This document shows positions 15,983 through 36,363 of a stretch of 37,091 nucleotides of DNA, piece after piece. This DNA comes from a virus (taxonomy: Duplodnaviria > Heunggongvirae > Uroviricota > Caudoviricetes), in the IMG/VR virus record IMGVR_UViG_2700989362_000003; one strand, written 5' to 3'. The translations under genes and the position numbers were made by a program. The notes below the pieces were generated by a model. That model was not told where the DNA came from. It searched no databases and saw only the letters and a program-made list of their open reading frames with translations. Position 1 is the first letter of the stretch. The number at the start of each line of letters is the position of its first letter.

Positions 15983-15983
15983 N
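15983..15983. other. N junction 1 (K/I 3' end joined to L interior)
   Basis: Single n. Sequence to its right restarts about 1.3 kb upstream in gene order, matching 14665 onward. Confidence 0.9.
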
Positions 15984-16575
15984 TTTTTTCTGTAATGAGC
16001 AGAACGAAAAAGGTGAGCCGGTCACCTGGCAGGGGCGACAGTATCAGCCGTATCCCATTCAGGGGAGTGGTTTTGAACTGAATGGCAAAGGCACCAGTAC
16101 GCGCCCCACGCTGATGGTTTCTAACCTGTACGGTATGGTCACCGGGATGGCGGAAGATCTACAGAGTCTGGTCGGCGGAACGGTGGTCCGGCGTAAGGTT
16201 TACGCCCGTTTTCTGGATGCGGTGAACTTCGTCAACGGAAACAGTGACGCCGATCCGGAGCAGGAGGTGATCAGCCGCTGGCGCATTGAGCAGTGCAGCG
16301 AACTGAGCGCGGTGAGTGCCTCTTTTGTACTGTCCACGCCGACGGAAACAGATGGCGCTGTTTTTCCGGGACGTATCATGCTGGCCAACACCTGCACCTG
16401 GACCTATCGCGGCGATGAGTGCGGTTATCACGGTCCGGCGGTCGCGGATGAATATGACCAGCCAACGTCCGACATCACGAAGGATAAATGCAGCAAATGC
16501 CTGAGTGGCTGTAAGTTTCGCAATAACGTCGGCAACTTTGGCGGCTTCCTTTCCATTAACAAACTTTCGCAGTAA
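15984..16575 (+). CDS. L: gpL 3' fragment, duplicate of 14665..15256
   Basis: Encodes FFCNEQNEKGEPVTWQGRQYQPYPIQG...KLSQ, identical at protein level to the first L copy. Confidence 0.85.
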
Positions 16576-16580
16576 ATCCC

Positions 16581-17324
16581 ATGACAGAGACAGAATCAGC
16601 GATTCTGGCGCACGCCCGGCGATGTGCTCCAGCGGAGTCGTGCGGCTTCGTGGTAAGAACGCCGGAGGGGGAAAGATATTTCCCCTGCGTGAATATCTCC
16701 GGTGAGCCGGAGGCGTATTTCCGTATGTCGCCGGAAGACTGGCTGCAGGCAGAGATGCAGGGTGAGATTGTGGCACTGGTCCACAGCCACCCCGGTGGTC
16801 TGCCCTGGCTGAGTGAGGCCGACCGGCGGCTGCAGGTGCAGAGTGATTTGCCGTGGTGGCTGGTCTGCCGGGGGGCGATTCACAAGTTCCGCTGTGTGCC
16901 ACATCTTACCGGGCGGCGCTTTGAGCACGGGGTGACGGACTGTTACACGCTGTTCCGGGATGCTTATCATCTGGCAGGGATTGAGATGCCGGATTTTCAT
17001 CGCGGGGATGACTGGTGGCGTAACGGTCAGAATCTCTATCTTGACAATATGGAGGTGACGGGTTTTTACCGTGTCGCACTGACAGAGGCACAGCCGGGCG
17101 ATGTGCTGCTGTGCTGTTTTGGTTCATCGGTGCCGAATCATGCCGCCATTTACTGCGGTGACGGCGGGCTGCTGCACCATATTCCTGAACAACTGAGCAA
17201 ACGAGAGAGGTACACCGACAAATGGCAGCGACGCACACACTCCCTCTGGCGTCACCGGGCATGGCGCGCATCTGCCTTTACGGGGATTTACAACGATTTG
17301 GTCGCCGCATCGACCTTCGTGTGA
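16581..17324 (+). CDS. K: tail tip assembly protein gpK, copy 2, full length 247 aa (allele b)
   Basis: Same architecture as copy 1 but a clustered patch of substitutions: ERYFPCVNISGEPEAYFRMSPEDWLQAEMQ versus DRYLPSENISGEPEERFRMAPEDWLRAQMQ. Confidence 0.9.
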   Translation: MTETESAILAHARRCAPAESCGFVVRTPEGERYFPCVNISGEPEAYFRMSPEDWLQAEMQGEIVALVHSHPGGLPWLSEADRRLQVQSDLPWWLVCRGAIHKFRCVPHLTGRRFEHGVTDCYTLFRDAYHLAGIEMPDFHRGDDWWRNGQNLYLDNMEVTGFYRVALTEAQPGDVLLCCFGSSVPNHAAIYCGDGGLLHHIPEQLSKRERYTDKWQRRTHSLWRHRAWRASAFTGIYNDLVAASTFV

Positions 17325-17863
17325 AAACGGGGGCTGAAGCCATCCGGGCACTGGCCACACAGCTCCCGGCGTTTCGTCAGAAACTGAGTGACGGCTGGTA
17401 TCAGGTGCGCATTGCCGGGCGTGATGCAGGTGAAACCGAATTGTCTGCCCGTCTTAATGAGCCGCTGGCAAATGGTGCAGTGATCCACATAGTACCGCGT
17501 CTGGTGGGAGCTAAAAGTGGCGGTGTGTTTCAGGCGGTGCTGGGGGCGGCTGTTATGGCGGTTGCTATATGGATGCCGGGGGTAGGAATTATGGCGAGTA
17601 ATCTGCTGTTTTCTCTCGGTGCCAGTATGACGCTTGGCGGTGTTGCACAGATGCTGGCACCGAAAGCCAGAACTCCCCGTACACAGACAACGGATAACGG
17701 TAAGCAGAACACGTATTTCTCGTCACTGGATAACATGGTTGCCCAGGGCAATGTTCTGCCCGTTCTGTACGGTGAAATGCGCGTGGGGTCACGTGTGGTT
17801 TCTCAGGAGATCAGCACGGCAGACGAAGGGGATGGTGGTCAGGTTGTGGTGATTGGTCGCTGA
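17222..17863 (+). CDS. I: tail tip assembly protein gpI, 213 aa
   Basis: MAATHTLPLASPGMARICLYGDLQRFGRRIDLRVKTGAEAIRALATQLPAFRQKLSDGWYQVRIAGRD... overlapping the K 3' end. The middle third differs from lambda I as I recall it. Confidence 0.9.
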   Translation: MAATHTLPLASPGMARICLYGDLQRFGRRIDLRVKTGAEAIRALATQLPAFRQKLSDGWYQVRIAGRDAGETELSARLNEPLANGAVIHIVPRLVGAKSGGVFQAVLGAAVMAVAIWMPGVGIMASNLLFSLGASMTLGGVAQMLAPKARTPRTQTTDNGKQNTYFSSLDNMVAQGNVLPVLYGEMRVGSRVVSQEISTADEGDGGQVVVIGR

Positions 17864-17882
17864 TGCAAAATGTTTTATGTGA

Positions 17883-17902
17883 AACCGCCTGCGGGCGGTT
17901 TT
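17883..17902 (+). terminator. stem-loop in the I-J intergenic region (possible attenuator)
   Basis: AACCGCCTGCGGGCGGTT hairpin followed by a T-rich stretch, 20 nt upstream of the J ribosome-binding site. A second copy lies at about 19248..19267. Confidence 0.35.
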
Positions 17903-17923
17903 GTCGTTTATGGAGCGTGAGGA

Positions 17924-18127
17924 ATGGGTAAAGGCAGCAGTAAGGGGCATACCCCGCGCGAAGCGAAGGACAACCTGAAATCCACGCAGTTGCTGAGTGT
18001 GATTGATGCCATCAGCGAAGGGCCGGTTGACGGTCCGGTGGATGGATTAAAAAGCGTGCTGCTGAACGGTACGCCGGTCCTGGACAGCGAGGGGAAGACA
18101 AACTTTTCCGGTGTTACGGTGGTGTTC
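17924..18127 (+). CDS. J: gpJ 5' fragment (68 codons) truncated at N junction
   Basis: MGKGSSKGHTPREAKDNLKSTQLLSVIDAISEGPVDGPVDGLKSVLLNGTPVLDSEGKTNFSGVTVVF, then the n at 18128. Confidence 0.85.
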
Positions 18128-18128
18128 N
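18128..18128. other. N junction 2 (J 5' end joined to K interior)
   Basis: Single n followed by K-internal sequence (EIVALVHSHPGG...). Confidence 0.9.
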
Positions 18129-18689
18129 GAGATTGTGGCACTGGTCCACAGCCACCCCGGTGGTCTGCCCTGGCTGAGTGAGGCCGACCGGCGGCTGCAG
18201 GTGCAGAGTGATTTGCCGTGGTGGCTGGTCTGCCGGGGGGCGATTCACAAGTTCCGCTGTGTGCCACATCTTACCGGGCGGCGCTTTGAGCACGGGGTGA
18301 CGGACTGTTACACGCTGTTCCGGGATGCTTACCATCTGGCGGGGATTGAGATGCCGGATTTTCATCGTGAGGATGACTGGTGGCGTCACGGTCAGAATCT
18401 CTATCTGGATAATCTGGAGGCCACAGGGCTGTATCAGGTGCCGTTGTCAGCGGCGCAGCCGGGCGATGTGCTGCTGTGCTGTTTTGGTTCATCGGTGCCG
18501 AATCATGCCGCCATTTACTGTGGTGACGGCGAGCTGCTGCACCATATTCCTGAACAACTGAGCAAACGAGAGAGGTATACCGACAAATGGCAGCGACGCA
18601 CACACTCCCTCTGGCGTCACCGGGCATGGCGCGCATCTGCCTTTACGGGGATTTACAACGATTTGGTCGCCGCATCGACCTTCGTGTGA
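18129..18689 (+). CDS. K: gpK 3' fragment, copy 3 (allele c, lambda-like)
   Basis: Encodes ...HREDDWWRHGQNLYLDNLEATGLYQVPLSAAQPGDVLL...GDGELLHH, distinct from copies 1 and 2 (HRGDDWWRNGQNLYLDNMEVTGFYRVALTEAQ...GDGGLLHH). Confidence 0.85.
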   Translation, partial: EIVALVHSHPGGLPWLSEADRRLQVQSDLPWWLVCRGAIHKFRCVPHLTGRRFEHGVTDCYTLFRDAYHLAGIEMPDFHREDDWWRHGQNLYLDNLEATGLYQVPLSAAQPGDVLLCCFGSSVPNHAAIYCGDGELLHHIPEQLSKRERYTDKWQRRTHSLWRHRAWRASAFTGIYNDLVAASTFV

Positions 18690-19228
18690 AAACGGGGGCT
18701 GAAGCCATCCGGGCACTGGCCACACAGCTCCCGGCGTTTCGTCAGAAACTGAGTGACGGCTGGTATCAGGTGCGCATTGCCGGGCGTGATGCAGGTGAAA
18801 CCGAATTGTCTGCCCGTCTTAATGAGCCGCTGGCAAATGGTGCAGTGATCCACATAGTACCGCGTCTGGTGGGAGCTAAAAGTGGCGGTGTGTTTCAGGC
18901 GGTGCTGGGGGCGGCTGTTATGGCGGTTGCTATATGGATGCCGGGGGTAGGAATTATGGCGAGTAATCTGCTGTTTTCTCTCGGTGCCAGTATGACGCTT
19001 GGCGGTGTTGCACAGATGCTGGCACCGAAAGCCAGAACTCCCCGTACACAGACAACGGATAACGGTAAGCAGAACACCTATTTCTCCTCACTGGATAACA
19101 TGGTTGCCCAGGGCAATGTTCTGCCCGTTCTGTACGGTGAAATGCGCGTGGGGTCACGTGTGGTTTCTCAGGAGATCAGCACGGCAGACGAAGGGGATGG
19201 GGGTCAGGTTGTGGTGATTGGTCGCTGA
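18587..19228 (+). CDS. I: tail tip assembly protein gpI, second full copy
   Basis: 213-aa ORF with the same protein as 17222..17863 and only silent or near-silent nucleotide differences. Confidence 0.9.
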   Translation: MAATHTLPLASPGMARICLYGDLQRFGRRIDLRVKTGAEAIRALATQLPAFRQKLSDGWYQVRIAGRDAGETELSARLNEPLANGAVIHIVPRLVGAKSGGVFQAVLGAAVMAVAIWMPGVGIMASNLLFSLGASMTLGGVAQMLAPKARTPRTQTTDNGKQNTYFSSLDNMVAQGNVLPVLYGEMRVGSRVVSQEISTADEGDGGQVVVIGR

Positions 19229-19288
19229 TGCAAAATGTTTTATGTGAAACCGCCTGCGGGCGGTTTTGTCGTTTATGGAGCGTGAGGA

Positions 19289-21131
19289 ATGGGTAAAGGC
19301 AGCAGTAAGGGGCATACCCCGCGCGAAGCGAAGGACAACCTGAAATCCACGCAGTTGCTGAGTGTGATTGATGCCATCAGCGAAGGGCCGGTTGACGGTC
19401 CGGTGGATGGATTAAAAAGCGTGCTGCTGAACGGTACGCCGGTCCTGGACAGCGAGGGGAAGACAAACTTTTCCGGTGTTACGGTGGTGTTCCGTGCAGG
19501 TGAGCAGGAGCAGACACCGCCGGAGGGTTTTGAATCCTCCGGCTCCGAGACGGTGCTGGGTACGGAAGTGAAATATGACACGCCGATCACCCGGACCATC
19601 ACGTCGGCAAACATCGACCGTCTGCGCCTGACCTTCGGTGTGCAGGCACTGGTGGAAACCACCTCAAAGGGTGACCGGAATCCGTCGGAAGTCCGCCTGC
19701 TGGTTCAGATACAGCGTAACGGTGGCTGGGTGACGGAAAAAGACATCACCATTAAGGGCAAAACCACCTCGCAGTATCTGGCCTCGGTGGTGGTGGATAA
19801 CCTGCCGCCGCGCCCGTTTAATATCCGGATGCGCAGAATGACGCCGGACAGCACCACAGACCAGCTGCAGAACAAAACGCTCTGGTCGTCATACACCGAA
19901 ATCATCGATGTGAAACAGTGCTACCCGAACACGGCGCTGGTCGGCGTGCAGGTGGATTCAGAGCAGTTCGGTAACCAGCAGGTGAGTCGCAATTATCATC
20001 TTCGCGGGCGCATTCTGCAGGTGCCGTCGAACTATAATCCGCAGACGCGGCAATACAGCGGTATCTGGGACGGAACGTTAAAACCGGCATACAGCAACAA
20101 CATGGCCTGGTGTCTGTGGGACATGCTCACTCATCCGCGCTACGGCATGGGGAAACGTCTTGGTGCGGCAGATGTGGATAAATGGGCGCTGTATGTCATC
20201 GGCCAGTACTGCGACCAGTCAGTGACGGACGGATTTGGCGGCACGGAGCCGCGCATCACCTGTAACTCTTACCTGACCACACAGCGTAAGGCGTGGGATG
20301 TTCTCAGTGATTTCTGCTCGGCGATGCGCTGTATGCCGGTATGGAACGGACAGATGCTGACGTTCGTGCAGGACCGACCGTCGGATAAGGTGTGGACCTA
20401 TAACCGCAGTAATGTGGTGATGCCGGACGATGGCGCGCCGTTCCGCTACAGCTTCAGCGCCCTGAAGGACCGCCATAATGCCGTTGAGGTGAACTGGATT
20501 GACCCAGATAACGGCTGGGAGACGGCGACAGAGCTTGTGGAGGATACGCAGGCCATTGCCCGTTACGGTCGTAATGTCACGAAGATGGATGCCTTTGGCT
20601 GTACCAGCCGGGGGCAGGCACACCGAGCCGGGCTGTGGCTGATTAAAACGGAACTGCTGGAAACGCAGACCGTGGACTTCAGCGTGGGCGCAGAAGGGCT
20701 TCGCCATGTACCGGGTGATGTCATTGAAATCTGCGATGATGATTATGCCGGTATCAGCACCGGTGGTCGCGTACTGGCGGTGAACAGCCAGACCCGGACG
20801 CTGACGCTCGACCGTGAAATCACGCTGCCGTCCTCCGGTACCACGCTGATAAGCCTGGTTGACGGAAGTGGCAATCCGGTCAGCGTGGAGGTCCAGTCCG
20901 TCACCGACGGCGTGAAGGTGAAAGTGAGCCGGGTTCCTGACGGCGTTGCAGAATACAGCGTGTGGGGGCTGAAGCTGCCGACGCTGCGCCAGCGTCTGTT
21001 CCGCTGCGTGAGTATCCGTGAGAACGACGACGGCACGTATGCCATCACCGCCGTGCAGCATGTGCCGGAAAAAGAGGCCATCGTGGATAACGGGGCACAC
21101 TTTGACGGTGACCGGCGCGGCACGGTGAATG
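19289..21131 (+). CDS. J: central tail fiber/host specificity protein gpJ, 5' 614 codons, truncated at N junction
   Basis: Starts MGKGSSKGHTPREAKDNLK..., co-linear with the lambda J N-terminal and central regions up to ...[11 protein letters not shown], then the n at 21132. Confidence 0.9.
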
Positions 21132-21132
21132 N
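21132..21132. other. N junction 3
   Basis: Single n. Sequence restarts at about J codon 60 (ISGVTVVFRAGEQEQ). Confidence 0.9.
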
Positions 21133-23091
21133 ACATCTCCGGCGTCACGGTGGTGTTCCGGGCAGGTGAGCAGGAGCAGTCACCGCCGGAGGGATTTGAA
21201 TCCTCCGGCTCCGAGACGGTGCTGGGTACGGAAGTGAAATATGACACGCCGATCACCCGGACCATCACGTCGGCAAACATTGACCGACTGCGTTTTACCT
21301 TCGGTGTACAGGCACTGGTGGAAACCACCTCAAAGGGAGACAGGAATCCGTCTGAAGTTCGCCTGCTGGTTCAGATACAGCGTAACGGTGGCTGGGTGAC
21401 GGAAAAAGACATCACCATTAAGGGCAAAACCACCTCGCAGTATCTGGCCTCGGTGGTGGTGGATAACCTGCCGCCGCGCCCGTTTAATATCCGGATGCGC
21501 AGAATGACGCCGGACAGCACCACAGACCAGCTGCAGAACAAAACGCTCTGGTCGTCATACACCGAAATCATCGATGTGAAACAGTGCTACCCGAACACGG
21601 CACTGGTCGGCGTACAGGTGGATTCGGAGCAGTTCGGCAGCCAGCAGGTGAGCCGTAATTATCATCTTCGCGGGCGCATTCTGCAGGTGCCGTCGAACTA
21701 TAATCCGCAGACGCGGCAATACAGCGGTATCTGGGACGGAACGTTAAAACCGGCATACAGCAACAACATGGCCTGGTGTCTGTGGGATATGCTGACCCAT
21801 CCGCGCTATGGCATGGGGAAACGTCTTGGTGCGGCAGATGTGGATAAATGGGCGCTGTATGTCATCGGCCAGTACTGTGACCAGTCGGTGCCGGACGGCT
21901 TTGGCAGCACGGAGCCGCGCATCACCTGTAATGCCTGGCTGACCACACAGCGCAAGGCGTGGGATGTGCTCAGTGATTTCTGCTCGGCGATGCGCTGTAT
22001 GCCGGTATGGAACGGACAGATGCTGACGTTCGTGCAGGACCGACCGTCGGATAAGGTGTGGACCTATAACCGCAGTAATGTGGTGATGCCGGATGATGGC
22101 GCGCCGTTCCGCTACAGTTTCAGCGCCCTGAAAGACCGCCATAATGCCGTTGAGGTGAACTGGATTGACCCAGATAACGGCTGGGAGACGGCGACAGAGC
22201 TTGTGGAGGATACGCAGGCCATTGTCCGTTACGGTCGTAACGTCACGAAGATGGATGCCTTTGGCTGTACCAGCCGGGGGCAGGCACACCGCGCCGGGCT
22301 GTGGCTGATTAAAACGGAACTGCTGGAAACGCAGACCGTGGACTTCAGCGTGGGCGCAGAAGGGCTTCGCCATGTACCGGGTGATGTCATTGAAATCTGC
22401 GATGATGATTATGCCGGTATCAGCACCGGTGGTCGCGTACTGGCGGTGAACAGCCAGACCCGGACGCTGACGCTCGACCGTGAAATCACGCTGCCGTCCT
22501 CCGGTACCACGCTGATAAGCCTGGTTGACGGAAGTGGCAATCCGGTCAGCGTGGAGGTCCAGTCCGTCACCGACGGCGTGAAGGTGAAAGTGAGCCGGGT
22601 TCCTGACGGCGTTGCAGAATACAGCGTGTGGGGGCTGAAGCTGCCGACGCTGCGCCAGCGTCTGTTCCGCTGCGTGAGTATCCGTGAGAACGACGACGGC
22701 ACGTATGCCATCACCGCCGTGCAGCATGTGCCGGAAAAAGAGGCCATCGTGGATAACGGGGCACACTTTGACGGTGACCGGCGCGGCACGGTGAATGGTG
22801 TCACGCCGCCAGCGGTGCAGCATCTGACCGCCGAAGTCACCGCAGACAGCGGGGAATATCAGGTGCTGGCGCGATGGGACACGCCGAAGGTGGTGAAGGG
22901 TGTGAGCTTCCTGCTTCGCCTGACCGTGGCAGCGGACGACGGCAGTGAGCGGCTGGTCAGCACAGCCAGGACGACGGAAACCACATACCGCTTCAGGCAG
23001 CTGGCGCTGGGGAATTACAGTCTGACAGTCCGGGCGGTAAATGCCCGGGGGCAGCAGGGCGATCCGGCGTCGGTATCGTTCCGGATTGCGG
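21133..23091 (+). CDS. J: gpJ internal fragment (about codons 60-715)
   Basis: Continuous J reading frame from GVTVVFRAGEQEQSPPEG... to ...ASVSFRIA. A few amino-acid differences from the 19289 copy (for example FGSQQ versus FGNQQ, AWLTTQ versus SYLTTQ). Confidence 0.85.
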
Positions 23092-23092
23092 N
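23092..23092. other. N junction 4
   Basis: Single n. Sequence restarts at about J codon 328 ([14 protein letters not shown]). Confidence 0.9.
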
Positions 23093-25047
23093 CTGACCAC
23101 ACAGCGCAAGGCGTGGGATGTGCTCAGTGATTTCTGCTCGGCGATGCGCTGTATGCCGGTATGGAACGGGCAGACGCTGACGTTCGTGCAGGACCGACAG
23201 TCGGATAAGGTGTGGGCCTATAACCGCAGTAATGTGGTGATGCCGGATGATGGCGCGCCGTTCCGCTACAGTTTCAGCGCCCTGAAAGACCGCCATAATG
23301 CCGTTGAGGTGAACTGGATTGACCCGGATAACGGCTGGGAGACGGCGACAGAGCTTGTGGAGGATACGCAGGCCATTGTCCGTTACGGTCGTAACGTCAC
23401 GAAGATGGATGCCTTTGGCTGTACCAGCCGGGGGCAGGCACACCGCGCCGGGCTGTGGCTGATTAAAACGGAACTGCTGGAGACGCAGACCGTGGATTTC
23501 AGCGTGGGTGCTGAAGGGCTTCGTCATGTACCGGGCGATGTCATTGAAATCTGCGATGATGACTATGCCGGTATCCGCACCGGCGGGCGCGTGCTGGCGG
23601 TGAACAGCCAGACCCGGACGCTGACGCTCGACCGTGAAATCACGCTGCCGTCCTCCGGTACCACGCTGATAAGCCTGGTTGACGGAAGTGGCAATCCGGT
23701 CAGCGTGGAGGTCCAGTCCGTCACCGACGGCGTGAAGGTGAAAGTGAGCCGGGTTCCTGACGGCGTTGCAGAATACAGCGTGTGGGGGCTGAAGCTGCCG
23801 ACGCTGCACCAGCGATTGTTCCGCTGCGTGAGTATCCGTGAGAACGACGACGGCACGTATGCCATCACCGCCGTGCAGCATGTGCCGGAAAAAGAGGCCA
23901 TCGTGGATAACGGGGCACACTTTGACGGTGACCGGCGCGGCACGGTGAATGGTGTCACGCCGCCAGCGGTGCAGCACCTGACTGCCGAAGTCACCGCAGA
24001 CAGCGGGGAATATCAGGTGCTGGCGCGCTGGGACACGCCGAAGGTGGTGAAGGGTGTGAGCTTCCTGCTTCGCCTGACCGTGGCAGCGGACGACGGCAGT
24101 GAGCGGCTGGTCAGCACAGCCAGGACGACGGAAACCACATACCGCTTCAGGCAGCTGGCGCTGGGGAATTACAGTCTGACAGTCCGGGCGGTAAATGCCC
24201 GGGGGCAGCAGGGCGATCCGGCGTCGGTATCGTTCCGGATTGCGGCACCGGCAGCGCCTGTCACTATTGAACTGATACCGGGGTATTTTCAGATAACGGC
24301 GGTCCCGAAACTGGCTGTATATGACCCGACGGTGCAGTTTGAGTTCTGGTTTTCGGAAAAGCGGATTGCGGATATCAGGCAGGTTGAAACCAGCGCCCGC
24401 TATCTTGGCACGGCGCTGTACTGGATAGCCGCCAGTATCAATATCAGGCCGGGCCATGATTATTATTTTTACGTTCGCAGTGTGAACACCGTTGGCAAAT
24501 CGGCATTTGTGGAGGCCATCGGTCGGGCGAGCGATGATGCAGAAGGTTATCTGAATTTTTATAAAGGGTTGATCAATAAAACGCATCTCGGCAAGGAGTT
24601 GTGGACGCAGATTGATAACGGTCAGCTTGCGCCGGACCTGACTGAAATCAGGACGTCCATTACGAATGTCAGCAATGAAATCACGCAAACCGTCAATAAA
24701 AAACTGGAAAATCAGAGTGCTGCAATCCAGCAGATACAGAAAGTTCAGGTTGATACAAATAATAACCTGAACAGCATGTGGGCTGTGAAGCTGCAACAGA
24801 TGAAGGACGGACGCCTTTATATTGCGGGTATCGGTGCCGGTATTGAGAATACGCCAGCAGGAATGCAGAGTCAGGTGCTGCTGGCGGCAGACAGGATTGC
24901 GATGATTAATCCTGCGAATGGCAACACAAAGCCGATGTTTGTTGGTCAGGGCGATCAGATATTCATGAACGACGTGTTCCTGAAATGCCTGACGGCTCCG
25001 ACCATTACCAGCGGCGGTAATCCTCCGGCATTTTCCCTGACACCTGG
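23093..25047 (+). CDS. J: gpJ internal fragment (about codons 328-980)
   Basis: J frame from [24 protein letters not shown]... through ...[23 protein letters not shown]. Carries the [27 protein letters not shown]... central segment. Confidence 0.85.
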
Positions 25048-25048
25048 N
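25048..25048. other. N junction 5
   Basis: Single n. Sequence restarts at about J codon 370 ([15 protein letters not shown]). Confidence 0.9.
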
Positions 25049-26102: not shown

Positions 26103-26123
26103 NNNNNNNNNNNNNNNNNNNNN
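26103..26123. other. assembly gap (21 N)
   Basis: Run of 21 n characters. Confidence 0.95.
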
Positions 26124-26158
26124 TATTCCCCGCTGTCTGCGGTGACTTCGGCAGTCAG
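26124..26158. repeat. 35-nt foldback: inverted copy of the adjacent J sequence, probably a chimeric-read or assembly artefact
   Basis: TATTCCCCGCTGTCTGCGGTGACTTCGGCAGTCAG is the exact reverse complement of the J segment CTGACTGCCGAAGTCACCGCAGACAGCGGGGAATA (seen at 25811..25845 and elsewhere), and is followed directly by the normal downstream J sequence. Confidence 0.7.
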
Positions 26159-27748: not shown

Positions 27749-27770
27749 AATATTTATAACCCCAATAAAT

Positions 27771-27794
27771 GGCGTCAGGAATGACGCCTTTTTT
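27771..27794 (+). terminator. intrinsic terminator after J
   Basis: GGCGTCA GGAA TGACGCC perfect 7-bp stem followed by TTTTTT, 25 nt after the J stop and before the lom ribosome-binding site. Confidence 0.6.
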
Positions 27795-27818
27795 ATTGCA
27801 GAAAAGCGAGAGGTAATT

Positions 27819-28113
27819 ATGCGTAAAGTTTGTGCAGCCATTTTGTCCGCAGCCATTTGCCTGGCCGTATCCGGTGCGCCTGCATGGGCGTCTGAACATC
27901 AGTCCACGCTGAGCGCGGGGTATCTTCATGCCCGGACCAACGTTCCCGGCAGTGATGATCTGAACGGGATTAACGTGAAATACCGTTATGAGTTTACGGA
28001 TACGCTGGGGCTGGTGACGTCATTCAGCTATGCAGGAGACAAGAATCGCCAGCTGACCCGTTACAGCGATACCCGCTGGCATGAAGATTCCGTGCGTAAC
28101 CGCTGGTTCAGCG
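27819..28113 (+). CDS. lom: lom 5' fragment (98 codons), loop variant 1, truncated at N junction
   Basis: MRKVCAAILSAAICLAVSGAPAWA signal peptide, then SEHQSTLSAGYLHARTNVPGSDDLNGINVKYRYEF... This differs from the other lom copies (YLQTHTDMPGSDDLKGI) in the first predicted loop. Confidence 0.8.
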
Positions 28114-28114
28114 N
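28114..28114. other. N junction 6 (lom interior joined to J interior)
   Basis: Single n followed by J-internal sequence ([21 protein letters not shown]...). Confidence 0.9.
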
Positions 28115-29653
28115 AAGGGCGTGAGCTTCCTGCTCCGTCTGACCGTAACAGCGGATGACGGCAGTGAGCGGCTGGGCAGCACGGCCCGGACGACGGAAAC
28201 CACTTACCGCTTCACACAACTGGCGCTGGGGAACTACAGGCTGACAGTCCGGGCAGTAAATGCGTGGGGGCAGCAGGGCGATCCGGCGTCGGTATCGTTC
28301 CGGATTGCCGCACCGGCAGCGCTGTCGCGGATTGAGCTGACGCCGGGCTATTTTCAGATAACCGCCACGCCGCATCTTGCGGTTTATGATCCGACGGTAC
28401 AGTTTGAGTTCTGGTTCTCGGAAAAGCGGATTGCGGATATCAGGCAGGTTGAAACCACAGCACGCTATCTTGGCACGGCGCTGTACTGGATAGCCGCCAG
28501 TATCAATATCAAACCGGGCCATGATTATTACTTTTATATCCGCAGTGTGAACACCGTTGGCAAATCGGCATTCGTGGAGGCTGTTGGTCAGCCGAGTGAT
28601 GATGCATCCGGTTATCTGGATTTTTTCAAAGGCGAGATAGGGAAAACCCATCTGGCTCAGGAGCTGTGGACGCAGATTGATAACGGTCAGCTTGCGCCGG
28701 ACCTGACTGAAATCAGGACGTCCATTACGAATGTCAGCAATGAAATCACGCAAACCGTCAATAAAAAACTGGAAAATCAGAGTGCTGCAATCCAGCAGAT
28801 ACAGAAAGTTCAGGTTGATACAAATAATAACCTGAACAGCATGTGGGCTGTGAAGCTGCAACAGATGAAGGACGGACGCCTTTATATTGCGGGTATCGGT
28901 GCCGGTATTGAGAATACGCCAGCAGGAATGCAGAGTCAGGTGCTGCTGGCGGCAGACAGGATTGCGATGATTAATCCTGCGAATGGCAACACAAAGCCGA
29001 TGTTTGTTGGTCAGGGCGATCAGATATTCATGAACGACGTGTTCCTGAAATGCCTGACGGCTCCGACCATTACCAGCGGCGGTAATCCTCCGGCATTTTC
29101 CCTGACACCTGGCGGACGGCTGACGGCGAAAAATGCCGATATCAGCGGTAACGTGAACGCGAACTCCGGGACGCTCAACAACGTCACGATTAATAAGAAC
29201 TGTCGGGTTCTGGGAAAATTGTCCGCGAACCAGATTGAAGGCGATCTCGTTAAAACAGTGGGCAAACCTTTCCCACGGGACTCCCGGGCACCGGAGAGGT
29301 GGCCATCAGGGACCATTACCGTCAGGGTTTATGACGATCAGCCGTTTGATCGGCAAATTGTTATTCCCGCGGTGGCGTTTCGCGGTGCTAAACATGAGCG
29401 GAAGAATAACAATATTTATTCGTCATGCCGCCTGATAGTGAAGAAAAACGGTGCTGAAATTTATAACCGAACGACCCTGGATAATACGCTGATATATACG
29501 GGTGTTATTGATATGCCTGCCGGTCACGGTCACATGACGCTGGAGTTTTCTGTATCGGCATGGCTGGTAAATGGCTGGTATCCCACAGCAAGTATCAGCG
29601 ATTTGCTGGTTGTGGTGATGAAGAAAGCCACTGCAGGCATCACGATTAGCTGA
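28115..29653 (+). CDS. J: gpJ 3' fragment including the C-terminal receptor-binding domain, allele 2 (ends ...[11 protein letters not shown])
   Basis: J frame to the stop at 29653. C-terminal region [95 protein letters not shown]... is distinct from allele 1. Central segment variant [20 protein letters not shown]. Confidence 0.85.
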
Positions 29654-29672
29654 ATTTTATAACCCAGATACG

Positions 29673-29696
29673 GGCACCAGAAATGGTGCCTTTTTT
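29673..29696 (+). terminator. intrinsic terminator after J (allele 2 context)
   Basis: GGCACC AGAAAT GGTGCC stem-loop followed by TTTTTT. An identical element is at 30964..30987. Confidence 0.6.
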
Positions 29697-29720
29697 ATTG
29701 CAGAAAAGCGAGAGGTAATT

Positions 29721-30203
29721 ATGCGTAAAGTTTGTGCAGCCATTTTGTCCGCAGCCATCTGTCTGGCCGTATCCGGTGCGCCTGCATGGGCGTCTGAACA
29801 TCAGTCCACGCTGAGCGCCGGGTATCTTCAGACCCATACTGATATGCCAGGCAGCGATGACCTGAAGGGCATTAACGTGAAATACCGTTATGAGTTTACG
29901 GATACGCTGGGGCTGGTGACGTCATTCAGCTATGCAGGAGACAAGAATCGCCAGCTGACCCGTTACAGCGATACCCGCTGGCATGAAGATTCCGTGCGTA
30001 ACCGCTGGTTCAGCGTGATGGCGGGGCCGTCTGTGCGCGTGAATGAATGGTTCAGCGCGTATGCGATGGCGGGTGTGGCTTACAGCCGTGTGTCGACTTT
30101 TTCCGGGGATTATATCCGCGTAACTGACAATAAGGGGAAAACGCACGATGTGCTGACCGGAAGTGATGACGGTCGCCACAGCAACACGTCTCTGGCGCAC
30201 TGA
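29721..30203 (+). pseudogene. lom: lom carrying an 83-bp internal deletion, frameshifted with premature stop (160 aa instead of 199)
   Basis: Co-linear with the full lom at 31012..31611 until ...SNTSLA. The 83 bp TGGGGGGCTGGCGTG...GTGGTGACTGGCG present in the full copy are missing, and a 5-bp direct repeat TGGCG flanks the deleted segment there. The frame then reads H and stops, losing the C-terminal strands and the terminal ...GYKF. Confidence 0.75.
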
Positions 30204-30264
30204 CGGTTTCATCGTGGGTGTCGGTTATAAATTCTGATTAGCCAGGTAACACAGTGTTATGACA

Positions 30265-30290
30265 GCCCGCCGGTTCAGGCGGGCTTTTTT
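30265..30290 (+). terminator. intrinsic terminator after lom
   Basis: GCCCGCC GGTTCA GGCGGGC stem-loop followed by TTTTTT. Identical elements are at 31639..31664 and 32579..32604. Confidence 0.6.
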
Positions 30291-30301
30291 GTGGGGTGAA
30301 T

Positions 30302-30858
30302 ATGGCAGTAAAGATTTCAGGTGTACTGAAAGACGGCACAGGAAAACCGGTACAGAACTGCACAATCCAGCTGAAAGCAAAACGTAACAGCACCACGGTG
30401 GTGGTGAACACGCTGGCCTCAGAAAATCCGGATGAAGCCGGGCGTTACAGCATGGACGTTGAGTACGGTCAGTACAGCGTTATTCTGTTGGTGGAAGGAT
30501 TCCCGCCGTCACATGCCGGGACCATCACCGTGTATGAAGATTCCCGACCCGGTACGCTGAATGATTTTCTCGGTGCCATGACGGAGGATGATGCCCGTCC
30601 GGAGGCACTGCGCCGTTTTGAGCTGATGGTGGAAGAGGTGGCGCGTAACGCGTCCGCGGTGGCACAGAACACGGCAGCCGCGAAGAAATCAGCCAGCGAT
30701 GCCAGCACATCAGCCCGTGAGGCGGCAACCCATGCGACTGATGCTGCAGATTCAGCACGTGCAGCCAGCACGTCAGCCGGACAGGCCGCTTCGTCGGCTC
30801 AGTCAGCGTCTTCCAGCGCAGGAACGGCATCAACAAAGGCCACTGAAGCCTCAAAAAG
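30302..30858 (+). CDS. stf: side tail fiber stf 5' fragment truncated at N junction
   Basis: [57 protein letters not shown]..., identical to the N-terminus of the full stf at 32616. The track starts the ORF at an upstream GTG (30296). Confidence 0.85.
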
Positions 30859-30859
30859 N
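30859..30859. other. N junction 7 (stf interior joined to J 3' end)
   Basis: Single n followed by the last 28 codons of J allele 2 ([27 protein letters not shown]). Confidence 0.9.
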
Positions 30860-30944
30860 AAATGGCTGGTATCCCACAGCAAGTATCAGCGATTTGCTGG
30901 TTGTGGTGATGAAGAAAGCCACTGCAGGCATCACGATTAGCTGA
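30860..30944 (+). CDS. J: gpJ 3'-terminal fragment (allele 2 type)
   Basis: Identical to 29569..29653. Confidence 0.8.
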
Positions 30945-31011
30945 ATTTTATAACCCAGATACGGGCACCAGAAATGGTGCCTTTTTTATTGCAGAAAAGC
31001 GAGAGGTAATT

Positions 31012-31611
31012 ATGCGTAAAGTTTGTGCAGCCATTTTGTCCGCAGCCATCTGTCTGGCCGTATCCGGTGCGCCTGCATGGGCGTCTGAACATCAGTCCAC
31101 GCTGAGCGCCGGGTATCTTCAGACCCATACTGATATGCCAGGCAGCGATGACCTGAAGGGCATTAACGTGAAATACCGTTATGAGTTTACGGACACGCTG
31201 GGGCTGATTACGTCATTCAGTTATGCCAACGCTGAAGATGAGCAAAAAACGCATTACAGCGATACCCGCTGGCATGAGGATTCCGTGCGTAACCGCTGGT
31301 TCAGCGTGATGGCGGGGCCGTCTGTGCGCGTGAATGAATGGTTCAGCGCGTATGCGATGGCGGGCGTGGCTTACAGCCGTGTGTCGACCTTCTCCGGGGA
31401 TTATCTCCGCGTAACTGACAACAAGGGGAAAACGCACGATGTGCTGACCGGAAGTGATGGCGGTCGCCACAGCAACACGTCTCTGGCGTGGGGGGCTGGC
31501 GTGCAGTTTAACCCGACCGAATCCGTGGCCATTGACCTTGCTTATGAAGGTTCCGGCAGTGGTGACTGGCGCACTGACGGTTTCATCGTGGGTGTCGGTT
31601 ATAAATTCTGA
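31012..31611 (+). CDS. lom: outer membrane protein Lom (Ail/Lom family), full length 199 aa, loop variant 3
   Basis: Signal peptide plus beta-barrel OMP signature ending ...DWRTDGFIVGVGYKF. Has a loop-2 variant SFSYANAEDEQKTHYSD versus SFSYAGDKNRQLTRYSD in the other copies. Confidence 0.9.
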   Translation: MRKVCAAILSAAICLAVSGAPAWASEHQSTLSAGYLQTHTDMPGSDDLKGINVKYRYEFTDTLGLITSFSYANAEDEQKTHYSDTRWHEDSVRNRWFSVMAGPSVRVNEWFSAYAMAGVAYSRVSTFSGDYLRVTDNKGKTHDVLTGSDGGRHSNTSLAWGAGVQFNPTESVAIDLAYEGSGSGDWRTDGFIVGVGYKF

Positions 31612-31675
31612 TTAGCCAGGTAACACAGTGTTATGACAGCCCGCCGGTTCAGGCGGGCTTTTTTGTGGGGTGAAT

Positions 31676-32002
31676 ATGGCAGTAAAGATTTCAGGTGTAC
31701 TGAAAGATGGGGCGGGGAAACCTGTCGTAAATTGTGCGATTGAACTGCGGGCCAGAAGAACCAGTCCGACCGTTGTGGCACACGTTGTTGCCACTTGCGT
31801 GACGGACAATAACGGTGCTTATGTGATTGAGGCTGAGCCGGGGTATTACGAGGTTGCGCTTCACTGTAACGGCTGGCAGCCAACCCGTGTCGGGGATATT
31901 GATGTGGCACCGACTGATGCACCGGGGACACTGAACGCGTTTCTGAATGCACCAAAGGATGGTGATTTACGTCCGGAGGTGATGAAGTGTCAGCGCCAGT
32001 GA
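31676..32002 (+). pseudogene. stf: second stf allele (divergent N-terminal domain), truncated after about 108 codons, apparently by an IS insertion
   Basis: [102 protein letters not shown], then MKCQRQ-stop. It is followed by non-stf sequence that encodes a transposase N-terminus. Confidence 0.7.
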
Positions 32003-32088
32003 TATAAGACGGTAATTCGCCATTTGGATTGTCCGCTCCACCCAACATGTTGTTTCCTTAAGGTTCTCACACCAGAAAGGACATCAAC

Positions 32089-32231
32089 ATGCTGAGCAGA
32101 GAGGACTTTTACATGATAAAGCAAATGCGCCAGCAGGGCGCGTACATCGTCGATATTGCGACTCAGATTGGTTGCTCTGAACGGACGGTCAGACGCTACC
32201 TCAAATACCCTGAACCGCCAGCCAGAAAGAC
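32089..32231 (+). mobile_element. IS21-family-like transposase (IstA-type) 5' fragment, truncated at N junction. The IS left boundary is uncertain, possibly near 31988 (TGTCAG...)
   Basis: MLSREDFYMIKQMRQQGAYIVDIATQIGCSERTVRRYLKYPEPPARK has an N-terminal helix-turn-helix with the pattern seen in IS21-family IstA proteins (compare IS100 ...[39 protein letters not shown] from memory). Confidence 0.5.
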
Positions 32232-32232
32232 N
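32232..32232. other. N junction 8 (IS fragment joined to lom interior)
   Basis: Single n followed by lom-internal sequence (TSFSYAGDKNRQLTRYSD...). Confidence 0.9.
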
Positions 32233-32517
32233 ACGTCATTCAGCTATGCAGGAGACAAGAATCGCCAGCTGACCCGTTACAGCGATACCCGCTGGCATGA
32301 AGATTCCGTGCGTAACCGCTGGTTCAGCGTGATGGCGGGGCCGTCTGTGCGCGTGAATGAATGGTTCAGCGCGTATGCGATGGCGGGTGTGGCTTACAGC
32401 CGTGTGTCGACCTTCTCCGGGGATTATCTCCGCGTAACTGACAACAAGGGGAAAACGCACGATGTGCTGACCGGAAGTGATGACGGTCGCCACAGCAACA
32501 CGTCTCTGGCGCACTGA
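32233..32517 (+). pseudogene. lom: lom 3' fragment carrying the same 83-bp deletion as 29721..30203
   Basis: Reads ...SNTSLAH-stop, as in the copy at 29721..30203. The original lom stop and terminator follow downstream. Confidence 0.75.
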
Positions 32518-32615
32518 CGGTTTCATCGTGGGTGTCGGTTATAAATTCTGATTAGCCAGGTAACACAGTGTTATGACAGCCCGCCGGTTCAGGCGGGCTT
32601 TTTTGTGGGGTGAAT

Positions 32616-35600
32616 ATGGCAGTAAAGATTTCAGGTGTACTGAAAGACGGCACAGGAAAACCGGTACAGAACTGCACAATCCAGCTGAAAGCAAAACGTA
32701 ACAGCACCACGGTGGTGGTGAACACGCTGGCCTCAGAAAATCCGGATGAAGCCGGGCGTTACAGCATGGACGTTGAGTACGGTCAGTACAGCGTTATTCT
32801 GTTGGTGGAAGGATTCCCGCCGTCACATGCCGGGACCATCACCGTGTATGAAGATTCCCGACCCGGTACGCTGAATGATTTTCTCGGTGCCATGACGGAG
32901 GATGATGCCCGTCCGGAGGCACTGCGCCGTTTTGAGCTGATGGTGGAAGAGGTGGCGCGTAACGCGTCCGCGGTGGCACAGAACACGGCAGCCGCGAAGA
33001 AATCAGCCAGCGATGCCAGCACATCAGCCCGTGAGGCGGCAACCCATGCGACTGATGCTGCAGATTCAGCACGTGCAGCCAGCACGTCAGCCGGACAGGC
33101 CGCTTCGTCGGCTCAGTCAGCGTCTTCCAGCGCAGGAACGGCATCAACAAAGGCCACTGAAGCCTCAAAAAGTGCTGCCGCTGCAGAGTCCTCAAAAAGC
33201 GCGGCGGCTACCAGTGCCGGTGCGGCGAAAACGTTAGAAACGAATGCGGCAGCGTCACAACAATCAGCAGCCACTTCTGCATCCACCGCGACCACGAAAG
33301 CGTCAGAAGCTGCCACCTCAGCCCGGGATGCGTCGGCTTCAAAAGAGGCGGCAAAATCATCAGAAACGAACGCATCATCAAGCGCCAGTAGCGCAGCTTC
33401 CTCGGCGACGGCGGCTGCAAATTCTGCGAAGGCGGCCAAAACGTCCGAGACGAACGCCAGGTCTTCTGAAACGGCAGCGGGACAGAGTGCCTCAGCTGCG
33501 GCAGGCTCAAAAACAGCGGCTGCGTCGTCTGCCAGCGCCGCGTCAACAAGTGCCGGGCAGGCCTCAGCCAGTGCCACCGCCGCCGGAAAATCGGCAGAAA
33601 GCGCCGCATCATCCGCTTCAACAGCCACAACGAAGGCTGGCGAAGCCACTGAGCAGGCCACGGCAGCAGCGAGGTCAGCTTCCGCAGCGAAGACATCCGA
33701 AACGAACGCGAAAGCGTCGGAAACCCGTGCAGAATCCTCAAAAACGGCTGCCGCATCGTCCGCCAGTTCGGCGGCGTCATCGGCATCATCGGCGTCTGCT
33801 TCAAAAGATGAGGCGACCAGACAGGCGTCAGCAGCGAAGGGCAGCGCCACGACGGCATCCACGAAGGCGACAGAGGCTGCTGGTAGTGCGACGGCAGCAG
33901 CTCAGAGCAAAAGTACGGCGGAATCTGCAGCAACGCGCGCTGAGACAGCGGCAAAACGGGCAGAGGATATTGCATCCGCCGTGGCGCTTGAGGATGCGAG
34001 CACGACGAAAAAGGGGATAGTACAGCTCAGTAGTGCGACTAACAGCACTTCCGAGTCACTGGCGGCAACACCAAAAGCCGTTAAGGCCGCGTATGACCTG
34101 GCTAACGGGAAATACACCGCACAGGATGCAACGACAGCACAGAAAGGGATAATCCAGCTAAGCAGCGCGACCAACAGCACGTCTGAAACGCTGGCGGCAA
34201 CGCCAAAGGCAGTAAAAGCAGCCAATGACAATGCTGAGAAACGTCTGCAGAAAGATCAGAACGGTGCGGATATCCCTGGCAAAGACACCTTTACGAAAAA
34301 TATTGGTGCCTGCCGTGCCTTCGGTGGGTCAGTAAGCACAACAACAGGAAACTGGACGACTGCACAGTTTATCGAGTGGCTGGATTCTCAGGGAGCATTT
34401 AACCATCCATACTGGATGTGCAAGGGTTCCTGGTCTTATGGCAATAATAAAATCATTACTGATACTGGCTGCGGTAATATTCATCTCGCCGGAGCTGTCA
34501 TTGAAGTAATGGGGATAAAGTCAGCGATGACGATCCGCATTACCACTCCGACCACATCCAGCGGTGGCGGAACAACCAACGCCCAGTTTACCTATATTAA
34601 TCACGGAACAGATTATTCACCTGGCTGGCGAAGGGACTATAACTCCAGAAATAAGCCAACGGCATCAGAGATCGGGGCGCTACCGTCAGGTGGAACAGCA
34701 GTATCATCAGTTAATCTGGCTTCAAAAGGTCGGGTAGCCGCGCTGACAGACAATACGCAGGGGGCAGCAGGTCTTGAGTTATACGAGGTGTATAACAACG
34801 GATATCCAACAGCGTATGGAAATATCATTCACCTGAAAGGGATGACAGCCGTTGGCGAAGGTGAGTTACTCATCGGCTGGGGGGGGACAAGCGGGGCTCA
34901 TGCTCCGGCATTTATTCGTTCACGACGGGATACGACCGACGCAAACTGGTCGCCGTGGGCGCAGCTTTACACCTCGGCTCATCCTCCTGCAGAGTTTTAT
35001 CCAGTCGGTGCACCAATCCCGTGGCCATCAGATACCGTTCCGTCTGGTTATGCCCTGATGCAGGGGCAGACTTTTGACAAATCTGCTTACCCGAAACTTG
35101 CAGCCGCTTATCCGTCAGGCGTGATCCCTGATATGCGTGGCTGGACGATTAAGGGCAAGCCCGCCAGTGGTCGTGCCGTATTGTCTCAGGAACAGGATGG
35201 CATTAAATCGCACACCCACAGCGCCAGCGCATCCAGTACGGATTTGGGGACGAAAACCACATCGTCGTTTGATTACGGCACTAAATCCACGAATAACACC
35301 GGGGCGCATACGCACAGTCTGAGCGGCTCTACAAGTTCAGCTGGGGCCCACCAACATAGTCAGACTGGGCCCAGAACGAATAGCGGGAGTCAACCTACTG
35401 GAATGTTTCCGGCAGGGAGTACTCAAGTTAGCGGGACTAATCAGGTTGGTATCAGTGGCTCATTAACCAGTGGCACCTCCCAATGGGTAGGTAAATCATC
35501 TTCAGAAGGAAACCATACACACTCACTGTCCGGCACAGCAGCATCTGCGGGTGCACACGCGCATACTGTCGGTATTGGTGCTCATACGCACTCTGTTGCG

Positions 35601-35699
35601 ATTGGTTCACATGGACACACCATCACCGTTAACGCTGCTGGTAACGCGGAAAACACCGTCAAAAACATCGCATTTAACTATATTGTGAGGCTCGCATAA
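32616..35699 (+). CDS. stf: side tail fiber protein Stf, about 1027 aa
   Basis: Lambda-type Stf N-terminus, then a long Ala/Ser/Thr-rich low-complexity shaft, two copies of the tail-fiber repeat KGI(V/I)[11 protein letters not shown](S/T)[11 protein letters not shown], a roughly 300-aa Cys-containing central domain ([10 protein letters not shown]...WMCKGSW...[10 protein letters not shown]...), and a C-terminal tip with multiple HxH motifs ending ...[11 protein letters not shown]. The track ORF starts at an upstream GTG (32610). Confidence 0.9.
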
Positions 35700-36280: not shown

Positions 36281-36363
36281 ATTCGTAATGATTACCTAAA
36301 TACGTTATTCTTTTGTTAAAAAAGTGATTTTGCTATAGGTAGGGAGTATGTTCTTGGATTAAG

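Follow-up and report, generated by a model that had tools for sequence, protein, structure and literature searches.

Does the chain of overlapping tail-tip gene copies in this viral record reflect an arrangement of genes on a bacterial chromosome, or was it created when the sequence was assembled? The window (the whole stretch of DNA analysed, 37,091 nucleotides) starts with a regular series of lambda-like head and tail genes, but from K onward returns repeatedly to genes that have already been passed. This staircase of tail-tip copies is very probably a draft-assembly scaffold artefact, in which pieces of the tail regions of two prophages lie side by side, the pieces themselves being chimeric.

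The only ambiguous bases in the window are N characters at nine sites, eight of them single (15983, 18128, 21132, 23092, 25048, 28114, 30859 and 32232) and one a run of 21 (26103-26123). Each site coincides with one of nine backward steps in gene order, creating ten segments (S0-S9), in exact agreement with the positions proposed in an earlier note on this DNA. The gene content of the segments, mapped by tblastn, is as follows.

S0, 1..15982 (+): Nu1 (1320-1865) through L (14558-15256), then K residues 1-240 (15262-15981)
S1, 15984..18127 (+): L minus its N-terminus, K (16581-17324), I (17222-17863), J residues 1-68
S2, 18129..21131 (+): K residues 62-247, I, J residues 1-614
S3, 21133..23091 (+): J residues 61-712
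S4, 23093..25047 (+): J residues ~329-985
S5, 25049..26102 (+): J residues 370-720
S6, 26124..28113 (+): J residues 628-1165, lom residues 1-98
S7, 28115..30858 (+): J residues 648-1164, lom (29721-30203, 160 residues), stf N-terminus
S8, 30860..32231 (+): full-length lom (31012-31611, 199 residues), truncated stf N-terminal domain (31670-32002), start of an IS21-family element (31988-32231)
S9, 32233..37091 (+): lom residues 66-159, stf (32610-35699, 1029 residues), tfa (35699-36280), AT-rich spacer, end of an IS1 (37030-37091)

The sequences brought together at the junctions are the following.

N at 15983: K residue 240 to the N-terminal part of L (tblastn match from residue 28), a step back of 1318 bp
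N at 18128: J residue 68 to K residue 62, a step back of 1364 bp
N at 21132: J residue 614 to J residue 61, a step back of ~1660 bp
N at 23092: J residue 712 to J residue ~329, a step back of 1153 bp
N at 25048: J residue ~985 to J residue 370, with S5 contained entirely in the span of S4
N run at 26103..26123: flanks overlapping by ~260 bp at ~98% identity
N at 28114: lom residue 98 to J residue 648, a step back of ~1900 bp
N at 30859: stf N-terminus to the end of J plus the stretch preceding lom, a step back of ~1290 bp
N at 32232: IS21-family transposase start to lom residue 66

By self-BLAST, each segment ends in sequence homologous to the start or the inside of the segment that follows, at 92-99.6% identity and with overlaps of 1318, 1364, ~1660, 1153, 1054, ~260, 1089+404, 629 and 940 bp at the successive joins. 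The flanks thus overlap by about 260-1900 bp at all nine joins, representing a negative gap rather than adjacency, and this includes the 21-N run, which is no real gap. On the contiguous reference phage mEp332 the segment starts are monotonic (3155, 3934, 5271, 6077, 6201, 6997, 7034, 8552 and 8859), and with the overlaps this means that every segment restarts upstream of the end of the previous one, bearing out the suggestion that each returns to an earlier point in the L-K-I-J-lom-stf order. The redundant zone, 14665..33172 (+), amounts to 18.5 kb of scaffold for ~6.7 kb of real locus from L to the stf N-terminus (coordinates 12995-19670 of the prophage A locus, L242, described below), a redundancy of ~2.8-fold. 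Within it, the tblastn map finds J as seven fragments (S1-S7), none of them intact, where six or seven had been anticipated. ORFs that read through junctions had been called chimeras, and domain content agrees: ORF 15262-16575 encodes K domains (JAB, NlpC/P60) followed by a gpL domain, and ORF 32089-32517 encodes a transposase HTH fused to residues 66-159 of Lom (Ail_Lom).

It is conceivable that the copies are real, forming a tandem amplification or cassette array of tail-tip fragments in which the Ns are incidental ambiguous base calls. The region is able to amplify, since a closed Shigella sonnei genome has a real tandem duplication of 9.2 kb spanning one of the two modules discussed below (module B). 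However, that duplication repeats a whole unit with an intact J at a constant period, whereas the offsets between homologous points here are 1319, 1365, 1666, 1154, 1832, 310, 1923, 1291 and 2314 bp, a spread of 310-2314 bp that leaves no constant repeat unit. Moreover, J is never intact in the window, an N is present at every discontinuity, and each junction joins different gene positions. The two junctions searched for in finished genomes (15983 and 23092, two of the nine) are spanned in none of 5,426 complete Escherichia coli genomes, where query coverage reaches at most 50% for the 301-bp query at 15983 and 52% at 23092, corresponding to one flank only. Among roughly 240 fetched loci, none contains any of the eight single-N junctions, the junction at 15983 was not found in viral and genome collections, and finished genomes and phages invariably match the 23-kb tail part with only ~10.4-11.6 kb of sequence. 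A J probe is present as a single copy in 122 of 128 related contigs; in the six with multiple copies, an N lies between the copies in 9/9 intervals, so that duplicate J probes never occur without one. An array would furthermore require at least eight copies to accommodate eight different crossover points between the two templates described next. A real tandem array, already argued against in the earlier note, is therefore vanishingly improbable.

If the copies are pieces of an assembly, from what were they assembled? The complete chromosome CP104423.1, which belongs to a relative of the source strain and not to the source strain itself, has two lambdoid tail modules 0.7 Mb apart. Module A is an intact lambda-like prophage, and module B (L246) is a remnant (M-L-K-I-J-lom-stf') that an IS21-family element interrupts and truncates, in a context that is also present in S. 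sonnei chromosomes. Counting indels, ~79% of columns align between A and B, with many short blocks of identity of up to ~86 nt. Three-way alignments of the segments with both templates were used to call A-type and B-type bases. S0 is A-like as far as 15268 and B-like from 15309 onward; it differs from prophage A at 57 positions in 14,312 bp, only one of which (position 9941) precedes 15269, a single difference in 13,598 bp before the switch, while the remaining 56 are B-type bases at 15309-15971. S1 is A-type at 16023-16907 and B-type at 16967-18115. S2 begins as A-type (18140-18578) and continues as B-type, interrupted by short stretches of A (19078-19087, 19768-19891, 20038-20086 and 20179). 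S3 is A-type at 21135-21968, mixed at 22016-22292 and B-type at 22328-23090, and the corresponding intervals of S4 are 23122-23593, 23650-24028 and 24055-25047. S5 is A-type throughout, with 99.8% identity to prophage A, except for indel-type noise in its last bases (26076-26097). In S6, 31 initial bases (26124-26154) match neither template, and the remainder is A-type except for a stretch of B at 26589-26741. S7 is A-type at 28120-28664, B-type at 28699-29870 and again A-type at 29903-30858.

The last two segments supply the ends of the two modules. S8 is the end of module B, almost purely B-type and 99.64% identical over its full length to locus B of CP104423.1, IS end included. It encodes Ail_Lom and phage_tail_N domains and holds the first 244 bp of the IS21-family element, whose match to an IS21 transposase N-terminus is weak; in a relative, rve and IstB_IS21 genes lie downstream. 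S9 is the end of module A, A-type with a four-site B patch (32412-32445) and 99.8% identical to prophage A, and terminates in the first 62 bp of an IS1 (37030-37091). Overall, S0, S5 and S9 are 99.6-99.8% identical to prophage A of CP104423.1. S9 opens with the same 97 bp with which S6 closes, and no other pair of segments in the window dovetails exactly. The start of S0 coincides with a 60-mer found at many draft contig ends, and contig ends thus fall at repeats (the IS1, the IS21-family element and this 60-mer).

The earlier note envisaged contigs from several co-resident lambdoid prophages, with three alleles each of K, J and lom. In its strictest form, faithful contigs from at least three distinct prophages would have been concatenated and the three alleles of each gene would be real. 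Up to three or four distinct 200-bp haplotypes are indeed stacked at one reference position, and E. coli genomes typically have several copies of the region (a median of 3-4 places per genome). Resolved site by site, however, only two states are present, both found in one complete relative, and the extra haplotypes differ solely in where A gives way to B. Outside 26124-26154, five positions (four distinct sites) in ~19 kb are explained by neither template, and two of these, 26253 in S6 and 28176 in S7, are one homologous site carrying the same private base in two overlapping segments; as a negative control, pieces from other drafts treated by the same method show many sites of neither type. 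The 31 unmatched bases of S6 (26124-26154) are real J sequence elsewhere (a 40-mer at the head of S6 is exact in >120 other prophage contigs), and hint at a third J-like source. Chimeras also vary between drafts of the same lineage, and in L077, the draft of an independent isolate, the pair is present as pure A and pure B pieces. At least three faithfully assembled prophages are accordingly very unlikely. Three different sequences do exist for each of K, J and lom, but each segment is a patchwork made up solely of A-type and B-type bases, and the third versions are, as read from these alignments, in-silico A/B chimeras derived from two templates. The concatenation of contigs from co-resident prophages holds; their number does not, as A and B explain essentially every base.

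Two haplotypes cannot by themselves distinguish two loci of one genome from two strains in a mixed culture or contaminated sample. Here, though, a relative has both haplotypes on a single closed chromosome, separated by 0.7 Mb, and the draft L077 has the same pair. S8 moreover runs into the IS by which module B is truncated, just as closed genomes show. A mixture of strains is, on this evidence, barely credible.

The positions of the template switches bear on how the mosaics arose. All 30 switches fall in blocks of at least 23 nt where A and B are identical, and 28/30 in blocks of at least 30 nt (median 38.5; the two shortest are 26 and 23 nt). Intervals between differences are as long as the switch blocks in 5.5% of cases, and a length-weighted null gives 0.594^30 = 1.6e-7. 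From segment to segment the A-to-B switch point shifts rightwards, a pattern that two loci cannot really produce. It is highly improbable that some of the chimeric K, J or lom genes are real, through recombination or gene conversion between A and B, or through a duplication of module B like that of the closed S. sonnei genome, in the source strain or a sub-population; if they were, the scaffold would partly record genuine exchange between prophages that creates new host-range (J) alleles.

The window is the whole of a public short-read draft WGS record, CXFK01000048.1 (GCA_001254835.1), with which its gene coordinates agree; the 20.7 kb of that record that were fetched (window 6581-27324) are identical, six N positions included. 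The source is most likely S. sonnei. Six other isolate-derived contigs in IMG/VR have the same single-N, back-stepping construction, and S1 is 99.86% identical to an N-free contig of a further independent draft (L257).

For a scaffold artefact built from two templates, the following mechanism may be proposed. The source genome would carry two paralogous lambdoid tail-tip modules, A and B, at different chromosomal sites, which the assembler was unable to separate, such that its walks swapped template wherever A and B were identical for ~23-30 nt or more and yielded chimeric A/B contigs. These overlapping pieces would then have been set out in positional order by a scaffolding or gap-filling step and, because they differ, left unmerged with a single N, or the residual 21-N run, at each join. 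The alternative of a contig-graph walk, also raised earlier, fits less well, since the joins are ordered along the locus, as the monotonic starts indicate, and not arbitrary; read-pair scaffolding or reference tiling is the better match.

The software that fits best is a pipeline of the Velvet, SSPACE and GapFiller type, given the N-marked joins, the 30-mer extension of both gap edges and closure only if the extensions merge. In a Velvet-based pipeline, read-pair joins receive N gaps that are subjected to 120 GapFiller iterations, and greedy steps may cause false joins; GapFiller extends edges by 30-mers and closes a gap only where the extensions overlap and the length matches the estimate (PMC5320598, PMC3446322). 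No published text was found in which SSPACE or GapFiller is said to leave exactly one N, nor was a description of the submitter's assembly pipeline for CXFK01. No named algorithm accounts in detail for the way in which the segments consistently run from A to B.

Reference-guided ordering, whereby contigs are tiled by alignment start into a pseudomolecule with one N per negative gap, would explain why the starts are strictly sorted on the reference and why the contained S5 comes after its container S4, and ABACAS pseudomolecules do allow for overlapping contigs and for gaps written as Ns. Yet the record, at 37 kb and with repeats at both ends, is a scaffold and not a chromosome-scale pseudomolecule, its number and size fit a size-sorted list of de novo contigs, the flanks of the 21-N run resemble edge extensions, and no source was found that gives a single-N convention. 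Reference tiling is thus unlikely, though it keeps a modest share of our credence.

The tail-tip staircase holds no biological novelty. Its practical consequence is that the public record already yields truncated and chimeric called proteins (products of 389, 626, 655, 650, 357 and 540 residues in its gene table), including the K::L and transposase::Lom fusions. Such records may inflate prophage length, create false 'novel' fusions or apparent diversity of J alleles, and mislead surveys of host range and tail fibres. A single N with mutually homologous flanks provides a simple screen for scaffolds of this kind.

Comparable false joins are described for SSPACE and GapFiller, where joins are marked by N, gap edges are extended by short k-mers, and a gap stays open if its extensions fail to merge or its length does not fit (PMC5320598, PMC3446322). 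A k-mer walk of ~30 nt, as in GapFiller, agrees with the switch blocks of at least 30 nt in 28/30 cases, whereas the regular A-to-B polarity of the window is not documented behaviour of these tools. Haplotigs, the uncollapsed allelic contigs of polymorphic diploid assemblies such as that of Ciona savignyi (PMC1868934), are similar in that two related versions of a region are assembled apart and placed in tandem, inflating length and breaking genes. The window differs in that a haploid bacterium supplied both versions, from paralogous prophage modules at separate loci, and in that its pieces mix A with B.

Among natural systems, S. sonnei 75/02 (CP019689), the closed genome with the duplication, shares module B (M-L-K-I-J-lom) and the same genomic neighbourhood, but has two complete 9.2-kb units, 99.98% identical, each with an intact 1159-residue J, free of Ns and separated by an IS, unlike the partial copies at variable offsets seen here. 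Phage lambda has the L-K-I-J-lom-stf-tfa content and order that is found within each segment; the S0 proteins from Nu1 to L are 94-100% identical to those of lambda, and the Pfam domains in the window are those of gpK, gpL, gpI, gpJ, Lom, Stf and Tfa. In lambda and every finished relative each tail-tip gene is present once, in contrast to the seven overlapping pieces of J in the window. The collinear order Nu1-A-W-B-C-D-E-FI-FII-Z-U-V-G-T-H-M-L-K-I-J-lom-stf-tfa, one copy each, holds from Nu1 to L in S0 and, in full, in the inferred real prophage A of CP104423.1; the window as written departs from it, with several copies of K, I, J and lom and not one whole J.

The window contains 29 N's and no other ambiguous base by a base count over its whole length, eight of them single (15983, 18128, 21132, 23092, 25048, 28114, 30859 and 32232) and the others in a 21-N run at 26103-26123, exactly where the earlier note had placed them in dividing the sequence into ten segments (S0 to S9). 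In self-BLAST, the tail of each segment aligns at 92-99.6% identity with the beginning or an inner part of the one that follows, with overlaps between successive segments of ~260 to 1900 bp, and with S5 wholly contained in the span of S4. When mapped on phage mEp332 (L001), the segment starts are monotonic (3155, 3934, 5271, 6077, 6201, 6997, 7034, 8552 and 8859), and each lies upstream of the end of the preceding segment. Both comparisons thus confirm that each segment restarts at an earlier point in the L-K-I-J-lom-stf order. The gene content of the segments, as mapped by tblastn of lambda and mEp332 proteins against the window, is as follows.

Gene content of the ten segments (numbers are amino acid positions)
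S0: intact Nu1 to L; K 1-240
S1: L without its N-terminus, K, I, J 1-68
S2: K 62-247, I, J 1-614
S3: J 61-712
S4: J ~329-985
S5: J 370-720
S6: J 628-1165, lom 1-98
S7: J 648-1164, lom, stf N-terminus
S8: lom, truncated stf N-domain
S9: lom 66-159, stf, tfa

On this map J is represented by seven fragments, none of them intact, as had been proposed from overlapping partial copies. ORFs that read through the junctions are chimeras, again as the earlier note held. For instance, in ORF 15262-16575 a gpL domain comes after those of gpK (Prok-JAB, NlpC/P60), a reversal of the real gene order, and ORF 32089-32517 is a fusion of a transposase HTH with residues 66-159 of Lom.

An exact-protein lookup with the S1 K allele returned the draft record CXFK01000048.1 (GCA_001254835.1), a contig of 37,091 bp with the gene at the window's own coordinates. 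Over the 20.7 kb compared, the record and window 6581-27324 agree at every position, N's among them, so that the window represents a complete scaffold of a draft assembly. The equivalent lookup with the 1029-aa Stf found no record. Short-read assemblies classically break at sequences like those that bound the scaffold: on the left a 60-mer found at the ends of many draft contigs, and on the right (37030-37091) the first 62 bp of the IS1 terminal repeat, a 100% match to the ends of IS1 in 5,000 or more plasmid records. S8 stops 244 bp into an IS21-family element, with rve and IstB_IS21 genes downstream in a relative (L254). Scans for tRNAs and Rfam families yielded nothing that bears on the finding. 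Three further features of the scaffold are the following.

230-655, minus strand: 141-aa DUF1398 (YbcV-like) ORF upstream of Nu1, in AT-rich surroundings, probably a moron-type accessory gene
31988-32231: left end of the IS21-family element (terminal TGTCAG..., IstA-like start MLSREDFYMIKQMRQQG...), inserted into the gene for the stf N-terminal domain of module B; insertion and contig end alike recur in the related draft L077 and in closed relatives
36042-36240, plus strand: full-length Rfam match to IS009 (RF02111), 218 bits, inside the 3' part of tfa

The tape-measure protein of S0 is encoded exactly in thousands of assemblies, including the complete chromosome CP104423.1, where the intact lambda-like prophage A (L242) has a single copy each of L, K, I, J, stf and tfa. 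That chromosome also encodes, 0.7 Mb from A, the rare Lom allele of S8; this site, locus B (L246), is an IS-flanked M-L-K-I-J-lom remnant beside ZnuA/ABC-3 transporter genes. Because the context of B recurs in CP019689 (Shigella sonnei 75/02) and CP022455 (an S. sonnei outbreak reference), the source is most likely an S. sonnei draft. Identity to A is 99.6-99.8% for S0, S5 and S9, and S8, IS end included, matches B at 99.64% along its full length; S1-S4, S6 and S7 are intermediate between the two. A search of RefSeq complete E. coli genomes for co-residence gave best full-length identities of 97.7% for S0 and 98.6% for S8, low values that reflect the absence of the Shigella-like lineage from that collection. 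The Lom proteins of the two loci differ in length, with that of prophage A truncated to 160 aa (window 29721-30203 and 32233-32517; ~77 bp missing relative to mEp332 lom, reference 9137-9214) and aligning to the Ail_Lom profile only up to position 159 of 199, and that of module B full at 199 aa.

Every site was classed by three-way alignment of the segment with A and B, built on local reference windows in the case of S6. Where A differs from B the segment carries the base of one or the other, and where A and B agree the segment matches both, leaving only five unexplained positions outside 26124-26154 (19201, 20287, 26253, 28176 and 31717). Two of these, 26253 in S6 and 28176 in S7, are one homologous site in overlapping segments, and look like a strain-specific SNP of template A that was included twice. 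Under the same procedure, pieces of other drafts show many sites that are neither A nor B, and L077 resolves into pure-A and pure-B pieces. The 31 bases that follow the 21-N run (26124-26154) fit neither template, and yet over 120 further contigs of lambdoid prophages contain the exact 40-mer that starts at 26124, which may point to an additional J-like copy in the source genome, a third and more divergent one, or to cross-paralog recruitment of reads during gap filling.

Segments begin A-type and then cross to B-type. In the case of S0, a single difference from A is present in 13,598 positions up to 15268, with B-type sequence from 15309 onward. The crossovers move rightwards by segment (K aa 2-16, K 109-129, K 211 to I, J 340-460, J 495-650, J ~700, J 765-782 and J 830-843), and these eight are too many for two loci, so that the chimeras arose during assembly. 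Each of the 30 template switches falls in a block of A=B identity of at least 23 nt, and 28 of them in blocks of at least 30 nt (median 38.5); intervals between differences that are this long make up only 5.5% of all such intervals, and the length-weighted null is 1.6e-7. Switching within long identity blocks is what a walk on short k-mers would do. Accordingly, of the claim of three K, three J and three lom alleles, the three sequences stand but the alleles do not, as they are two templates joined in different chimeric combinations. Long exact blocks at the ends of segments were also considered as contig forks beside repeats shared by different prophages, a reading that was dropped, as the same template (A or B) is written twice. 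Within the redundant zone (14665-33172), S1 and S2 are B-type over gene I and J aa 1-60, so an A-type copy of this stretch is absent from the entire scaffold, and the missing piece must be on another contig or have been dropped from the assembly.

The record probably came from de novo assembly with tools such as Velvet, SSPACE and GapFiller, a type of pipeline that fits it. In such a pipeline, joins made from read pairs receive N gaps that then undergo 120 GapFiller iterations, whereby both gap edges are extended with 30-mers and a gap is closed only when these extensions overlap and agree with the estimated length; the authors caution that greedy steps may create false joins (PMC5320598, PMC3446322). 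In a two-copy region, the two extensions may pass each other on different templates, which would create overlapping divergent flanks and a leftover N. Gap-edge extensions of this kind should resemble the two sides of the 21-N run, which share an overlap of ~260 bp and finish in noisy bases. The artefact could also have arisen by reference-guided tiling; the paper on ABACAS speaks of contigs that overlap and of gaps written as N's, and gives no single-N rule. The literature on scaffolders (SSPACE negative gaps, GapFiller, scaffolder evaluations) likewise yielded no explicit statement of one N between overlapping contigs, and a search of papers for accession CXFK returned nothing relevant, on the submitter's pipeline or otherwise. 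By either route, the staircase of tail-tip copies is not a real genomic feature. The core of the original proposal, concatenated contigs of co-resident lambdoid prophages, is retained, but 'several' prophages are not needed, as two templates suffice and the 'alleles' that lie between them are chimeras created in silico.

The artefact is recurrent and has been passed on into viral databases. Six other contigs of isolate drafts in IMG/VR show the same single-N, back-stepping layout, some sharing break points. These joins lie in the L-K-I-J region of L020/L039, L077, L079, L058/L122, L024 and L114, and the break points common to some of them are at reference 3934, 6201, 6997 and 7034. Among the public gene calls on the record (table L256, window 15406-27324) are products of 389, 85, 184, 626, 655, 650, 357 and 540 aa across junctions, all truncated or chimeric, so that public protein collections contain proteins that are artefacts. 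The value of the finding is in flagging a recurrent artefact that seeds such collections with truncated and chimeric proteins.

A real tandem array, against which the earlier note had argued, is contradicted by several observations. The 23 kb from gene H onward collapse to 10.4-11.6 kb in all matches listed (phages and 5,426 complete E. coli genomes). Queries of 301 bp centred on junctions 15983 and 23092 never exceeded 50-52% coverage in the 5,426 genomes, with single flanks of each present in more than 4,200 of them (at 100% identity for 15983), and a junction-spanning pattern had no match in collections of viral contigs and genome contigs. Successive copies are offset by anything from 310 to 2314 bp in self-BLAST, and hence there is no repeat unit. 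Among fetched loci that carry a J probe, 122 are single-copy and six multi-copy, and all nine inter-copy intervals contain N. The arrangement is unlike that in the closed genome of S. sonnei 75/02 (CP019689.1, L250), where a 9.2-kb module B (M-L-K-I-J-lom) is duplicated in tandem (1983-11183 versus 11400-20600) at 99.98% identity. That duplication looks genuine and could be an IS-mediated amplification, or else a long-read assembly issue in that record; it has no N, an IS between the units, and two intact J genes of 1159 aa.
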